43,102 nucleotides of DNA from NCBI GenBank assembly GCA_040326155.1, contig JBEQLE010000035.1, forward strand, positions 1 through 43,102, written 5' to 3'. The notes beneath the pieces were generated by a model. The model searched no databases, was not told the origin of the DNA, and saw only the letters and a program-made list of their open reading frames with translations. Source of the DNA: Leptospirales bacterium (GTDB taxonomy: Bacteria; Spirochaetota; Leptospiria; Turneriellales; JAOUFE01). Made by a program: the position numbers and the translations under genes. This document shows positions 28,695 through 39,495 of this stretch, piece by piece (position 1 is the first letter of the stretch; each line of letters starts with the position of its first letter).

Positions 28695-29939
28695 ATGGAA
28701 GAATTAAGTTTATCTTATGTTCGCTCAGAATTAGAAAAGTCGTTAGAGAAAAAAGGGCTGAGCGACCAAATGGCGCAAGTTAGCGTCGAAAAAGGAGAAT
28801 TCTGTCTTCGAATTTATCCTGAAAATTTAAATGATGCAGCTATCCAGGAAGCTCTGGTTTTAGCTAAAAAGTATATTAATAACTGGCGCATTCATACCTT
28901 TGAAAAAGGGTATATCAGCGTACAGGCTCTCAATGACAACATTTTCCAGACTGACGACATTCTGAATAACTTAAAATTAAAAATTAACGCGCTTTCCGGT
29001 GAAAGGGTAATTGAGATTACTAAAAAAGGCGTAATGAATCATGATGAGTTTACGCTTTTACAGAATTTTATTAAAACGTATGGAATTATATCAAAAAAAG
29101 ATCCCTTTGATAAATTAATCGATGCAGGGTGTCAGGTATATCTTCCACTGAAAGAAACTTTGGGGTGGGACGATTTTGCGGGGTATACTTCCATAAAAGA
29201 TCAGATTCTGGAGACTGTTGTTTTGCCCGTGCGGGAACCAGATGTGTACGATGCTATCGTAAAAAAAACGAGGAAAAAACAGGGCGAGAGCATTCGACCA
29301 AAAGCTGTTCTGTTTTCCGGTCCCCCCGGTGTAGGTAAAACCACCATGGCAAGAATTCTTGCTAAAGAGACAGGTCATGTTCTTGTCTATATTCCACTTG
29401 AAAATCTGATGTCGGCCTATTATGGCGAGTCGACGAAAAAACTGGCCGCTATTTTTGACATTGCGAGTGAAGCCAAAGAGACGGATATGATACTGTTTCT
29501 CGATGAAATTGATGCGCTTGCTCCTTCTCGAAACGATAATCTTTTTGAGGCAACCCGCCGCATGTTATCGGTTTTGCTGCGAAAAATCGATGGAATTGAA
29601 TCAAAAGATAATTACATTACCGTCGGGGCGACAAATAGAAGAACAGACCTTGACCCCGCTCTGCTTTCACGTTTCGATTCCATCATTGAGTTTCCCATGC
29701 CAACAGAATCGGACATTACGGAGTTATTAAAACTGTTTGCCATTCATCTTGATTCTGAACAAATGAAATCGGTCTCTATAAAAATGGCCGGGCTGGCCCC
29801 CAGAACCATTCGGGATATTTGTAAAAGAGCCGAGCGAATACAGGCCAGAAGAAATATTCTGTCGAAAAACAGAGAAGATTTGCCTGATGTAGAGGCTTAT
29901 TTTGAAGCCATATCCCAGTTGCCTTCGGATGAAATATGA
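28695..29939 (+). CDS. AAA+ ATPase
   Basis: GPPGVGKT, LFLDEIDA, GATNR..LDPALLSRFD. Confidence 0.93.
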   Translation: MEELSLSYVRSELEKSLEKKGLSDQMAQVSVEKGEFCLRIYPENLNDAAIQEALVLAKKYINNWRIHTFEKGYISVQALNDNIFQTDDILNNLKLKINALSGERVIEITKKGVMNHDEFTLLQNFIKTYGIISKKDPFDKLIDAGCQVYLPLKETLGWDDFAGYTSIKDQILETVVLPVREPDVYDAIVKKTRKKQGESIRPKAVLFSGPPGVGKTTMARILAKETGHVLVYIPLENLMSAYYGESTKKLAAIFDIASEAKETDMILFLDEIDALAPSRNDNLFEATRRMLSVLLRKIDGIESKDNYITVGATNRRTDLDPALLSRFDSIIEFPMPTESDITELLKLFAIHLDSEQMKSVSIKMAGLAPRTIRDICKRAERIQARRNILSKNREDLPDVEAYFEAISQLPSDEI

Positions 29940-30673
29940 GTCAAACTGCTGAACAAGTAAAAACCGATTTGCGGGCTTATTCCAATGCCAAAAATGCAGC
30001 TAATTTACAACGGTTTTTTAAAACCGCTAAAGGGGATTACGGCGAAGGCGATAAGTTTTTAGGAATTAAAGTTCCCGAAATTCGAAAAGTGGCCGCCAAA
30101 TTTATTGACCTTACATTTAAACATCTTGAAACCTTGTTGACTTCCTCTTTTCATGAGGAGAGATTTTTAGCCCTTGCTATTTTGACAAAAAAGTTTGCGC
30201 GGGCCAATTCTGCCGTTCCCGAAACCGAAACAAAAGAACAAATTTACGAGTTCTACATGGCCCACACAGACAACATTAACAACTGGGATCTTGTCGATGT
30301 CAGCGCCCCCCAAATTGTCGGGGGTTATCTTTATCCGTTGGGTTCTCGTTTCTGGTCTGTATTATACAAAATGGCTGAAGAAGATCATTTGTGGCGAAAG
30401 CGTATTTCCATTATTTCGACTTTTACATTTATTCGACAAGGCGTTTTTAAGCCCACCCTTGACATAGCCAAAATATTGCTCAACGACGAACACGATCTTA
30501 TACACAAAGCCGTCGGCTGGATGCTGCGTGAGGTTGCCAATCGCGATCGCCCCCCGGTCGAAAAGTTTTTACAAGAACACTGTAAAACAATGCCGCGCAC
30601 CATGCTGCGCTACGCGATAGAAAAGTTCCCCGAAGAGCTGCGGCAAGAATACCTGAAAAAGATCTGTAAGTGA
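29936..30673 (+). CDS. DNA alkylation repair protein (AlkD-like)
   Basis: FFKT..G.YGEGD.FLG.KVP, NNWDLVD, DLIHKAVGWMLRE, PRTMLRYAIE. Confidence 0.92.
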   Translation: MSQTAEQVKTDLRAYSNAKNAANLQRFFKTAKGDYGEGDKFLGIKVPEIRKVAAKFIDLTFKHLETLLTSSFHEERFLALAILTKKFARANSAVPETETKEQIYEFYMAHTDNINNWDLVDVSAPQIVGGYLYPLGSRFWSVLYKMAEEDHLWRKRISIISTFTFIRQGVFKPTLDIAKILLNDEHDLIHKAVGWMLREVANRDRPPVEKFLQEHCKTMPRTMLRYAIEKFPEELRQEYLKKICK

Positions 30674-30723: not shown

Positions 30724-30811
30724 CAGGTTGTGGATCCCTGACTACTGATCTTTACTCAAGATTAACTTGACAGCAGAAATCAATTACTCTATATTAAATA
30801 AAAGGTTAAAC

Positions 30812-31024
30812 ATGGATAAGTTGTTATTAGATAAAGTTCTTGAAATGCCGCCTGCTGAAAGAGTCTCTTTTGCTGAACTGGTACTTGCTTCCATCGATCA
30901 CGAAGACGATGAATTAAGAAAGTCTTGGATAAGCGAAGTCAAGGATAGAATGCAAGCGGTCGAAGATGGCAAGGCCAGTTTAATTGACTTTGAAGATCTG
31001 TATCATGAAAGTACGGATTCATGA
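30812..31024 (+). CDS. Addiction module antitoxin
   Basis: LEMPPAER..AE.VLASID...SW.SEV..R; promoter TTGACA-N17-TATATT at 30767-30795. Confidence 0.85.
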   Translation: MDKLLLDKVLEMPPAERVSFAELVLASIDHEDDELRKSWISEVKDRMQAVEDGKASLIDFEDLYHESTDS

Positions 31025-31301
31025 GCTTGCTGCACTCGAATTAAATGAGGCGGTAGAATGGTATGAACTTCAGTCTGTCGGCTTGGGTCTACGATATAAG
31101 AAATCAATTTATGCGCAGGTTAACAAAATAAAAAACAACCCAAAGTGGTTTTTAATGGAAGAAGAGAATATTTTCAAGGCCTACATTCCAAAATTCCCGT
31201 ACAAAATATTATACTCAATAGAAGAAACAACAATTATTATTTGGGCGATTGCTCACTTGCATCGAGAACCCACCTATTGGCAAAATCGCCGAATAAATTG
31301 A
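31005..31301 (+). CDS. RelE/ParE family toxin
   Basis: IHELA..EL.EAVEWYE....GLG.RY, KFPYKILY, IWAIAH.HREP.YW. Confidence 0.9.
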   Translation: MKVRIHELAALELNEAVEWYELQSVGLGLRYKKSIYAQVNKIKNNPKWFLMEEENIFKAYIPKFPYKILYSIEETTIIIWAIAHLHREPTYWQNRRIN

Positions 31302-33154: not shown

Positions 33155-33414
33155 TCGAAAAGAGGCCGGTAAATTTATTGACCTTACATTTAAACATCTT
33201 GAAACCTTGATAACTTCCTCTTTTCACGAGGAGAGATTTCTCGCCCTTGCTATTTTGACAAAAAAGTTTGCGCGGGCCAATTCTGCCGTTCCTGAAACCG
33301 AAACAAAAGAAAAAATTTACGAATTTTATATGGCCCACACAGACAACATCAACAACTGGGATCTTGTGGATGTCAGCGCCCCCCAAATTGTCGGGGGTTA
33401 TCTTTATCCGTTGG
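33155..33414 (+). pseudogene. Internal 260-bp copy of the alkD-like gene (30082-30341)
   Basis: Ungapped alignment with 15 substitutions by manual count; lacks the alkD start and 3' half. Confidence 0.92.
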
Positions 33415-33459
33415 CCTGGAAGGGCTTTGCCCTTCTTTGCAGATTGAAATTTGTTAGAT
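33415..33459 (+). other. attC right half ending in GTTAGAT
   Basis: GAAGGGCtttGCCCTTC hairpin then gcagattgaaatttGTTAGAT; near-identical to 36713-36733. Confidence 0.55.
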
Positions 33460-33490
33460 GAAGTGCCAATTAATACCAATGAAGAATATG

Positions 33491-33793
33491 CTAATGAGTA
33501 TTTAGCCATTCCGGATCATTTGCTTTGTTTGTATAATTCCACATTAAGTCTTTGTTAAGAGTACGCCATACCGGGAGGTATAGATCACCATTTTGCTTGA
33601 GTAAATAATTCTCGTTATAATACTTGAGAACATGAATGATTTCCTTCTTTAAATCCGTAGGGATTGGTGCATCAGAAACAATGAATTTTTCGTTTTTGTA
33701 GTATATAAGCTTAAAGCGTACAAAGTAAATTTTGTTTAACCAGACAAATAGAATAACAACTATTGGTACTATCCAAATTGTGTGTTTTGCCAT
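33491..33793 (-). CDS. Small membrane-anchored protein, candidate immunity or partner
   Basis: ATG overlaps upstream TAA (TAATG); N-terminal TM. Confidence 0.7.
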   Translation of the reverse strand: MAKHTIWIVPIVVILFVWLNKIYFVRFKLIYYKNEKFIVSDAPIPTDLKKEIIHVLKYYNENYLLKQNGDLYLPVWRTLNKDLMWNYTNKANDPEWLNTH

Positions 33794-34627
33794 TACGGAC
33801 CCTTCCATTGAAAATTTTCATCATTAAACCAATAATCGATAATTTTTATTTTTGCAGATAATTTTTGAGACCAGTGCGCTTCCATGCGAAATGGCGCCGC
33901 GCCTCTATGTTTTTGCAAGAGAAGGGCGTCTTCATCCGAAATAGAACCAAAACCCGGTATGTACGCAGCGAGGCCAGCGTGCCAGTTATACGGATCCCAC
34001 CATCGATGTTTAACTATACCGGTAATGGTTACGTATTCGCCGTTCATGACTAACTTGAAATTCCCATGGGAAGTAATGGTACTAGTGCCACTGGCATAAT
34101 ACAACTCTCCAAATTGACTTGCAGTGAGAGAACGGTCCCAGTAGTCATGAAAATTCCGGGTACTATTATCTTTCATTTTGTCAGCGATATCGGATAGGGA
34201 ACCTTCAAACCTTTCTCTGTTTTTCTCTTCAGCATCCAAGACTGATTCAAAACCTCGAAGCCAGCTTACACTGAGCTTTTTTACCCCTCCGGTACCGTCT
34301 AAAAATCGCTCGAGATTATCAGCCGCTACATCATACCCATCCTCTCTTGCGGAAGTGATCATTTCTCTGTATCGTTTTTCAATTTCATCAAGCCGGGTAT
34401 TTAATTTCTTACTTTCATCTTCCTCTGTAGAATCTGCGGTAATATTCTTTGGACTGTTGGTATTTTTTTCTTGTCTTTGAATTTTGTTATCACTATTGTT
34501 AACAAAAATGTCTTTCCTTCCTATAGAAAATATGGGTGTAACAAATTTGTTTTGACAGGTATCGTGTACCCGAAAGAATAATTCGAGAGTTCCGGATCTG
34601 AGAATTTAATAAAAGGAGTGTCACACC

Positions 34628-35737
34628 ATGAAAACAATTGCACATTTAGGACTGGATGTCCACAAAGAAACCATAACTGCGGCCTTGGTCAAGTCTAATT
34701 CGAGAACATGCGAATTAACGCAGAAACTACCGCACCGTATATCGAGGATAAAGAAATATTTAAAAGAACTGAGTAAAACTTATGATTTACGGATTTGCTA
34801 CGAAGCCGGTTGCACCGGATTTAAACTCTATCGGGAGTTAACTAAAGTCGGCTACTCTTGCACCGTAATAGCCCCTTCTTCTTTGCCAAAAAATAATAAG
34901 AAAGTTAAAACCGATAAAATCGACGCACAGAATTTGGCTCTCTATTTTAAAAACGGACTGTTCAGCCCGGTAAATGTTCCCGACGAAGACCTCGAAATGG
35001 ACAAGGATTTAGTCCGTTTTCGCGAAACGCAGGTAAAAAACACAACCCGAGTAAAACTACAAATCAAATCGTTCCTGCTCAGGAAAGGCATTGAATATGA
35101 ATACGAAACCTGGAATAAGAGTTTCATGGACTTCCTTGGCACTCTTGAGTTAAATCGTAAAGACAGGGCCACCTTGAACATGTATCTCGGGCACTTGAAT
35201 TATCAAAGCAAACTAGTTGAAGAACTGACCCAGGAAATTTCTTCTCTTTCTATGACCGACCGATACAACGAGCCGGTAAAGATTCTTTGCGGTTTTCGCG
35301 GAATCCAGACGGTCACCGCGATGACTATTATGACCCACATTCCTGATTTCAGGGGGTTTTCTAATCCGAAATACCTGGCTTCGTATGTAGGTGTCGTTGC
35401 CGGTGAGCACTCATCCGGAGATACAAGAATCAACCTCGGGATCACCAAGCATGGGAATAGTCTATTGCGAAAGGCATTTGTGAGCGCCGCGCAGCATTTT
35501 ACCAGGGCCGATAAAACCGGGGAAAAATTGAGAAAAGATAGAGAGAAATTGCCGGCTAATATCAGGGCCATCATAGATCGCTCCGATCGGCGTTGCAGAA
35601 AAGTTCTCTATAAATTAATCCACAAGGGCAAACATATCAACAAGGCCAAAACTGCCATAGCCAGAGAATTGATCGGATTTACCTGGGAGGCCATGATGAC
35701 TCATTATAACGGTGAGCTTAAAGGACATGAAGCCTAA
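34628..35737 (+). CDS. IS110 DEDD transposase/recombinase
   Basis: GLDVHK, CYEAG, KTDKIDA, YVG...EHSSG, ITKHGN.LLR, AIAREL. Confidence 0.96.
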   Translation: MKTIAHLGLDVHKETITAALVKSNSRTCELTQKLPHRISRIKKYLKELSKTYDLRICYEAGCTGFKLYRELTKVGYSCTVIAPSSLPKNNKKVKTDKIDAQNLALYFKNGLFSPVNVPDEDLEMDKDLVRFRETQVKNTTRVKLQIKSFLLRKGIEYEYETWNKSFMDFLGTLELNRKDRATLNMYLGHLNYQSKLVEELTQEISSLSMTDRYNEPVKILCGFRGIQTVTAMTIMTHIPDFRGFSNPKYLASYVGVVAGEHSSGDTRINLGITKHGNSLLRKAFVSAAQHFTRADKTGEKLRKDREKLPANIRAIIDRSDRRCRKVLYKLIHKGKHINKAKTAIARELIGFTWEAMMTHYNGELKGHEA

Positions 35738-35964
35738 TATTTAGTAAGGCATATTGAGGTGGTACGGAAATCAAAAAGGACGTTGATGAATCACGACTCG
35801 CACTTGTGGTAACCAGTCCACGGATAACAGTTTGGTAAAACGCCGAATGAAAATTCCCGATGTCCGTACCAAGTCCTCGTGTTAGAATTGGAGGTTATTA
35901 GTATGAAATCATGATAATGGAACTTTGCGTTCTTAGAAGCGAAAAATCATTTTTTGCTTTGACA
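35738..35964 (+). ncRNA. Putative bridge/seek RNA region
   Basis: Stem GGTACGGA/TCCGTACC (35761-68/35863-70) enclosing CTCGCACT and ATAACAG, which match the target flank and the IS end. Confidence 0.7.
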
Positions 35965-36469
35965 TTACACCCATAACAGTGCGAGCGCTATCGGATTCAT
36001 TACTTTGTTGTTCATGTATATTATTTGATATATTTATTCCCAATTTTCTTTGTAAATATCCCGATTTCCATAAATGTTCTACTGCTCGATTTCCAATTGT
36101 GCGTTGCAAATACATGATATACTCGCGACGATTGGTTATAATCGCATTTTGAAAGGAATTCTTTGTCGATGAGCTACTATCTGTAGACGTCTTAGATGAT
36201 GAGCTTTTATCGCCTCCAGAATTCTTATTTAATGGAGAATGAAAGGACATATAAAGCAATTGTAATTAATGAAGATATAATTGCAACAATGTTTTTGTGG
36301 TGTAATAAACAGTTATCTGCAAAGATGGATTGTATTAAATGCATTGGCATTTTACATAACGTGGAGGTTTTGTCTGGTGTTTTGGGGCTTTCGTAGTCAG
36401 CCATGGGTACACCAAACTAACTCCCATAATTTGTGCGAGGCCGACATCCGATAGCGGCAGCGGTAGGAT

Positions 36470-36508
36470 GGAGTGGTCCTCCGAAATCTGCACAGGATTT
36501 CGGTCGCC
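36470..36508 (+). repeat. Structured repeat family B, copy 2
   Basis: GGAGTGGTCCTCCGAAATCTGCACAGGATTTCGGTCGCC. Confidence 0.8.
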
Positions 36509-36676
36509 AGGGCGGTTAAGCGAAAGTCGCGCCAAAATGTGGTTGAGCTATTTGCGAAAAAACAATTGATCTTATGTCTCTTTTGAAATAAGTGTAATTT
36601 TAAAATATAATATGTTGCTAAGGTCAAGTGCGCGCCAAAAAGGGCGAAGCCCTCTTAGGTCGCGACTGAGCCGTTG

Positions 36677-39432: not shown

Positions 39433-39495
39433 ATCTAACGTGACGGTTTTATCTGATGTTTTGGGAAGCCTTGTGCAGATTAAAATCGGTTATAC
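39433..39495 (-). other. attC-like recombination site, 63 bp
   Basis: GTATAAC-cgatt-TTAATCTG...CAGATAA-aaccgtcac-GTTAGAT; stop codon of 39490..39894 lies inside R''. Confidence 0.75.

Follow-up and report, generated by a model that had tools for sequence, protein, structure and literature searches.

Guides from two loops lie side by side in the bridge RNA gene of an IS1111-type element from a Leptospirales bacterium, very probably a deleted form of a normal two-loop RNA

The mechanism of the element described here is already known (Durrant 2024; Siddiquee 2024). IS621, as presented in PMC11208160, carries its bridge RNA in the left end and has a CT core; the RNA forms two internal loops, target then donor, with four guides that each reach the core dinucleotide, the left guides lying 5' of the right guides, and guides and flanks covary. 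The same paper describes elements of the IS1111 group as having subterminal inverted repeats of 7–17 bp, a short left end and a long right end, and these unequal ends of IS1111-type elements are also set out in PMC11187229. For the IS1111-family seekRNA elements ISEc11, ISPa11, and ISKpn4, the latter source describes a long downstream non-coding region, subterminal inverted repeats, and target matches of which the top-strand match lies 5' of the bottom-strand match.

In the 43,102-nucleotide stretch of DNA analyzed here (the window), which belongs to the genome designated G000, an element occupies positions 34527–35977 with AG at each end (Table 1). Its ends were fixed by element pieces at other G000 contig ends. 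An AG-anchored pattern allowed ends to be called in 48 loci, every one of them with AG on each side, and for the multi-copy groups the same ends had come from a looser pattern. The recombinase shows the features of the IS110 family, a DEDD RuvC-like domain and a C-terminal Tnp domain with the SG serine; it scores 207 bits against NCBIfam NF033542 (cut-off 140), and its residues D10, E59, D96, D99, and S263 are invariant among 20 close relatives. As in that family, a short core is found at both junctions with no further target duplication, and the empty site can be restored: without the element the flanks join into one 339-codon minus-strand frame, which identifies AGTGCGAG as core plus host DNA. 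Neither part of the split host gene has a Pfam match, and its 5' part has paralogues in G000. The perfect 11-nt subterminal inverted repeats fall within the 7–17 bp of the IS1111 group, and a long non-coding region follows the transposase (left end 101 nt, right end 240 nt), this right end being the shortest among the 48 loci (next 281 nt). Judged from its sequence, the TTGACA hexamer that overlaps the right inverted repeat could be the −35 box of a promoter formed on circularization; a promoter scan returned 2 sites against 4.1 expected. We conclude with high confidence that the bridge RNA gene belongs to an IS1111-type, IS110-family element and that the window sequence is a deleted form of a normal two-loop RNA.

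Table 1. Positions of the element, its RNA segments, and the interrupted gene in the window.
Feature	Positions	Strand	Basis
Host gene, split by the insertion (5' part 35980–36259, 3' part 33793–34524)	33793–36259	−	339-codon frame once the element is removed
Left core copy, AG	34525–34526	+	AG on both sides of the element; frame restored without the element
Short left end, 101 nt, with subterminal inverted repeat 34531–34541	34527–34627	+	Sequence shared with copies C99 and C16 begins here
IS110-family RNA-guided recombinase, 369 aa, open frame (D10, E59, D96, D99, S263)	34628–35737	+	Pfam PF01548 and PF02371
Bridge RNA core, bounded by the outer stem strands; the L053 core is 53 nt longer	35761–35870	+	Fold, alignment with L053, model R1
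5' strand of the target-loop closing stem, orphaned in the window, with its partner within the missing 53 nt	35784–35794	+	Complement search, pair probabilities
Right-target guide, reverse complement of core plus right target flank	35797–35804	+	Same position covaries with the right flank in relatives
18-nt hairpin, one copy left (two in L053), with the deletion join inside it	35805–35822	+	Comparison with L053, fold
Left-donor guide, same letters as element right end plus core	35823–35830	+	Same position covaries with the right end in relatives
Right subterminal inverted repeat, overlapping the TTGACA hexamer before it	35963–35973	+	11-nt inverted repeat
Right core copy, AG	35978–35979	+	AG on both sides of the element; frame restored without the element
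Right target flank TGCGAGC, host DNA, common to other insertions	35980–35986	+	Junction comparison

The original prediction had placed two guide segments inside an 8-bp closing stem, one on either side of a single hairpin, and the elements of this description were all recovered. The outer stem pairs GGTACGGA (35761–35768) with TCCGTACC (35863–35870), the hairpin is present, CTCGCACT is the exact reverse complement of AGTGCGAG (35978–35985), and ATAACAG at 35824–35830 is identical to the right end plus core at 35973–35979. Its interpretation of both segments as guides of a bridge RNA was borne out, the first serving the right target flank and the second the right end of the element, as was its report that no good guide for the left flank or the left end could be found, the longest exact match in the window copy being 3 nt for each. 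Among 20,000 dinucleotide shuffles of the RNA core, the 8-mer appeared in 1, the 7-mer in 106, and both in none; a looser test, which counted an 8-mer from anywhere in the 27-nt junction, in either orientation, together with a separate 7-mer, was satisfied by 50 of 20,000. The fold of the core gives a z-score of −2.25 (5 of 200 shuffles), and the hairpin has a predicted probability of 0.41, against 0.55 for pairing of the orphan strand with the hairpin. No Rfam family matched the window at gathering scores.

Relatives were taken from 132 loci, reduced to 107 with a near full-length protein, to 48 with callable ends, and to 46 in 21 distinct guide sets, parsed by the RNAs' own motifs; the window's own locus and the unparsed locus L071 were left out of the covariation count, and L116 was scored with its right-donor guide parsed one base off. 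Throughout the 21 sets the guides follow one order: right-target guide, hairpin, left-target guide, then right-donor guide, hairpin, left-donor guide. Mean fits to own versus shuffled flanks were 2.83 versus 1.23 of 4 for the left target and 4.09 versus 1.90 of 5 for the right target (each the best of two registers), 1.71 versus 1.15 of 2 for the two bases after the core, 2.81 versus 1.87 of 4 for the right donor, and 2.81 versus 2.08 of 3 for the left donor. Guide covariation across homologues, a check put forward with the original prediction, was found for five of five segments over the 21 sets, with 0 of 20,000 permutations each, a result that is overstated, most of all for the donor guides, because the sets include kin. 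Guide and flank also change together within close pairs and groups (L009/L010, L055/L062, and L101/L112/L132). The distance from the right-target to the left-donor guide is 80–134 nt in all 21 sets and 27 nt in the window.

RNAalifold, applied to 19 relatives, returned two loop-closing stems comprising 12 pairs, 3 of them with changes on both sides; the hairpins and the outer stem were not recovered. Model R1, built from 19 relatives without L053 and without the window, gave a single match in the whole window, at 35777–35854, with 19.7 bits and 66 positions skipped, and aligned to L053 over both loops with 30 bits. Separate target and donor loops with two guides each, which define a bridge RNA, are found in the relatives and not in the window copy; L053 has both loops, with a poor right-donor guide. 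The arrangement of the IS1111 elements, a top-strand target match 5' of a bottom-strand match, is seen in L053 and the relatives, and the window copy is without the second match. Among the near-identical elements L035, L036, and L038 (genomes G009, G013, and G119) the length of the target-loop hairpin varies greatly, and L046 has another sequence inserted right after its left-target guide.

L053, a metagenome contig, is the only close relative among the loci whose DNA was compared. Its gene is 87% identical to that of the window in protein and 88% in nucleotides, and its RNA core agrees at 105 of 110 positions outside one gap. L053 carries an identical 18-nt hairpin twice with 35 nt between the copies, the window carries it once, and the gap of 53 nt equals one repeat copy plus these 35 nt. 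The 53 nt absent from the window hold, in order, the left-target guide, the partner of the strand at 35784–35794, and the 5' half of the donor loop; the best downstream complement of that strand matches at 10 of 11 positions in L053 and at 7 of 11, far off, in the window. As in the relatives, the extra segment comprises a left-target guide with core, after which come two bases that open the left end, and this guide fits the left flanks of the C99 and C16 copies at 4 of 5 positions and that of L053 itself at 3 of 5. The L053 RNA folds with a z-score of −4.89 (0 of 200 shuffles), and its two hairpins have probabilities of 1.0 and 0.99, compared with 0.41 in the window. Against a deletion, the long form is seen in one close sequence, L053, which is an imperfect reference because its right-donor guide fits its own left end at 1 of 4 positions. 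On the 5' side of the second loop of L053, the letters entering the hairpin show direct similarity to the left end, at 9 of 11 positions by eye, which may be chance in an A-rich stretch. None of the other G000 copies spans 35637–35859.

The odd layout of the window, with the right-target guide beside the left-donor guide, comes from a 53-nt loss between two identical 18-nt hairpins, and the arrangement is derived from a two-loop RNA whether the join is natural or an artefact. The proposal of a natural multibranch or one-loop design was not supported: the guides come from two different loops brought together by the 53-nt loss. By analogy with IS621 and ISEc11, from which transcription, RNA binding, and catalysis of the element are extrapolated, a whole-form RNA such as that of L053 would be made from the right end and bind the recombinase. 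The target would be read by its first loop, in which the right-target guide pairs with core plus TGCGAG on the top strand and the left-target guide, beyond the hairpin, with the bottom strand; the second loop would read, in the same guide order, the element's ends as joined in the excised circle, and strand exchange by the recombinase would follow at the AG core. A join between the two hairpin copies would have cost the RNA its left-target guide, the target-loop stem's 3' strand, and the donor loop's 5' half, bringing the right-target guide next to the left-donor guide. We infer that the short RNA of the window does not work; if the join was made in a cell, the window copy would rely on whole RNA from another copy.

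As to how the 53 nt were lost, we lean towards an assembly mis-join. Collinear jumps at short repeats occur in just one of 320 contig ends of G000, and that contig end, C99, carries a copy of this very element: its last 245 nt consist of element pieces joined at 8- to 10-nt repeats by three jumps, nearly without substitutions and with exact overlaps of 10 and 8 nt. These jumps speak for a mis-join. A natural deletion in the cell is a serious contender, if not the favored one. Direct repeats of 18 nt placed 53 nt apart are a typical substrate for slippage, and a repeat shorter than the overlaps of 55 and 77 nt seen at G000 contig ends should not collapse in a de Bruijn graph, which favors either a natural deletion or a scaffolding join. 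Among the ten sequencing runs listed, none contained half of the query words, and no RNA run was among the matches listed; four of the ten, aligned to L053, left 1243–1350, the interval that contains the 53-nt segment, uncovered.

It is very improbable, by our estimate, that the short RNA is natural and working, its fused loop reading the right junction of an inserted copy as one substrate and, together with whole RNA from another copy, moving or excising that end. The recombinase is intact, the two guides flank one hairpin in the order and spacing of a normal loop of the clade, and a weak closing stem with 3 of 4 pairs can be drawn. Partial RNAs are moreover active in other IS110 elements: a target-loop-only RNA is described as supporting transfer of one junction (bioRxiv 10.1101/2025.10.25.684509), and half matches as recombining (bioRxiv 10.64898/2026.08.31.748434). 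However, the fused loop was seen once, in an assembly with other short-repeat jumps in the same element; its guide spacing is found in 0 of 21 guide sets of relatives; by prediction, the orphan strand disrupts the hairpin by pairing with it; and no compensating change closes the loop. A single loop reading a junction alone would also be new, because the junction substrates of IS621 excision are described as binding across both loops (PMC13626964). No natural fused target/donor loop is described in the titles or abstracts of the literature found, a scope that leaves most subscription papers outside. Were it natural and active, a one-loop junction RNA would load the recombinase on right junctions and, with whole RNA in trans, shift the balance among excision, direct transfer, and insertion, an outcome to which we assign very little weight; it would offer a new way to steer excision and a natural example of loop-half shuffling in bridge RNAs.

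We regard it as similarly far-fetched that the window form is ancestral and that L053 gained its 53 nt by duplication or mis-assembly. L053 alone among the 48 loci has an 18-nt direct repeat in the RNA region (the others have 6–9 nt), and its right-donor guide misfits. However, the repeat accounts for just 18 of the 53 nt; the remaining 35 nt provide the partner of a 5' stem strand still present in the window and a left-target guide where relatives have one, and two loops are present in all relatives. The 53 extra nt are thus not a plain duplication, because they pair with the strand kept in the window (10 of 11) and hold a guide fitting left flanks. That both segments are the sole guides of a complete multibranch RNA, one for target and one for donor, as the original prediction had offered, is hardly tenable, since relatives carry four guides rather than two and the two missing guide positions fall exactly in the 53-nt gap.

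The target motif proposed from the window, together with the suggested comparison of other insertions, proved sound: AG-TGCGAGC stands at all three assembled right junctions in G000 (the window, C41, and C16) and in L053, and TGCGAG follows 34 of the 426,873 AG sites of the genome. The window copy lies inside a gene, at a site with a complete fit to the right guide and agreement with the left guide at 2 of 5 positions. The other insertions sit in a family of long palindromic repeats (25 listed by inner motif and 36 by end motif), which begin with TAAC, end with GTT(A/G), and have attC-like end boxes; the usual target of the element is an arm of the inner hairpin in such a repeat. Among 13 uninterrupted repeat copies caught by pattern in G000, the core position reads CG in 6, GG in 5, TG in 2, and AG in none, and one further uninterrupted copy (C97) has AG at the core but another flank. 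Two explanations offer themselves: every AG copy already carries an insertion, or the donor writes the first base of the core. A loose end in sequencing run X1 was considered as an exact empty target and rejected, its core being TG, not AG.

Several further observations concern these repeats and the element's ends. Two copies of the attC-like repeat, recognized by their end boxes, lie in the window, one long (36357–36560) and one very short (39436–39492), in a region with many short unrelated genes, as in cassette arrays, and a tyrosine recombinase on C106 of G000 adjoins attC-like repeats. On the minus strand of G000 contig C90, near 41910–41866, 46 nt of an L053-like left end directly follow CCCATAAC-AG, which are the letters of the right end of the window element plus core, immediately upstream of a paralogue of the host gene that the window element interrupts. 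This site is either what remains of a circle junction that integrated or the product of insertion at a half-match site recognized by the donor guide only. Elsewhere in the window, two overlapping short frames at 30767–31301, the first matching Pfam Unstab_antitox and the second without a Pfam match, are probably a toxin-antitoxin pair, and the DNA alkylation repair gene at 29936–30673 is present a second time, in part, at 33207–33461.

As it stands, the element is one more bridge-recombinase element and matters little, and the window sequence is unfit as a template because its RNA is incomplete. The four-guide map and the covariation in this right-end, AG-core clade lead to testable targets, here AG-TGCGAG with some 8 nt on the right side. 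How loop halves can be lost or swapped is illustrated by a lineage with an identical 18-nt hairpin in both loops.

At E-values of 1e-80 or better, 34 proteins were found, those of the subclade being 50–87% identical. The recombinase had no close relative in 400 genomes of the phylum (one at 37%) and no phmmer match to solved structures at E 0.001. The right end had no DNA match in 40 related genomes, the right end of L053 had none in plasmids, and searches of viral contigs by pattern and by alignment found no relative. IS1663 was rejected as a clade member, its row in the Durrant supplement being without the motifs.

Compared with the known systems, the element resembles ISEc11, ISPa11, and ISKpn4 as they are described in PMC11187229 in its long downstream non-coding region and subterminal inverted repeats, and its clade resembles them in the order of top- and bottom-strand target matches. 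It differs in that the window copy is without a bottom-strand target match and that its protein, at 369 aa, is longer than the 330–350 aa given there for IS1111-family transposases; that account describes target matches, whereas in the clade analyzed here the donor loop was read too. Like the IS1111-attC group (ISKpn4, ISPst6, and ISPa25), the element inserts into palindromic repeats with attC-like ends, but the repeats here measure at least about 200 bp, it is an inner arm that carries the element, and the best match in G000 to the integron integrase profile TIGR02249 reaches 102.7 bits against a cut-off of 265. With IS621 the clade shares the two loops, target then donor, the four guides that each reach the core, and the guide-flank covariation, but its RNA lies in the right end, its core is AG, and its right guides come first. 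Another close known group is the ISSfr2/ISEc45 clade of ISfinder elements: a plasmid element annotated as ISSfr2 family has 35% protein identity, shares the AG core and the pattern of the ends, and has an RNA that reaches 102 bits on model R1. ISCARN28, one of six elements with guides drawn in PMC11208160, probably belongs to this clade as well, likened by motif only, from motifs seen by eye in its row of Durrant Supplementary Table 1. The candidate new programmable recombinase of the original prediction therefore holds as an ordinary new clade member and not as more than that, since the clade already contains named elements such as ISSfr2. In a recombinase tree that took in this clade only, the window element falls in a separate subclade with 100/100 support, which is set apart from ISSfr2/ISEc45 by a target-loop stem of its own and, in L053, by identical hairpins in both loops.
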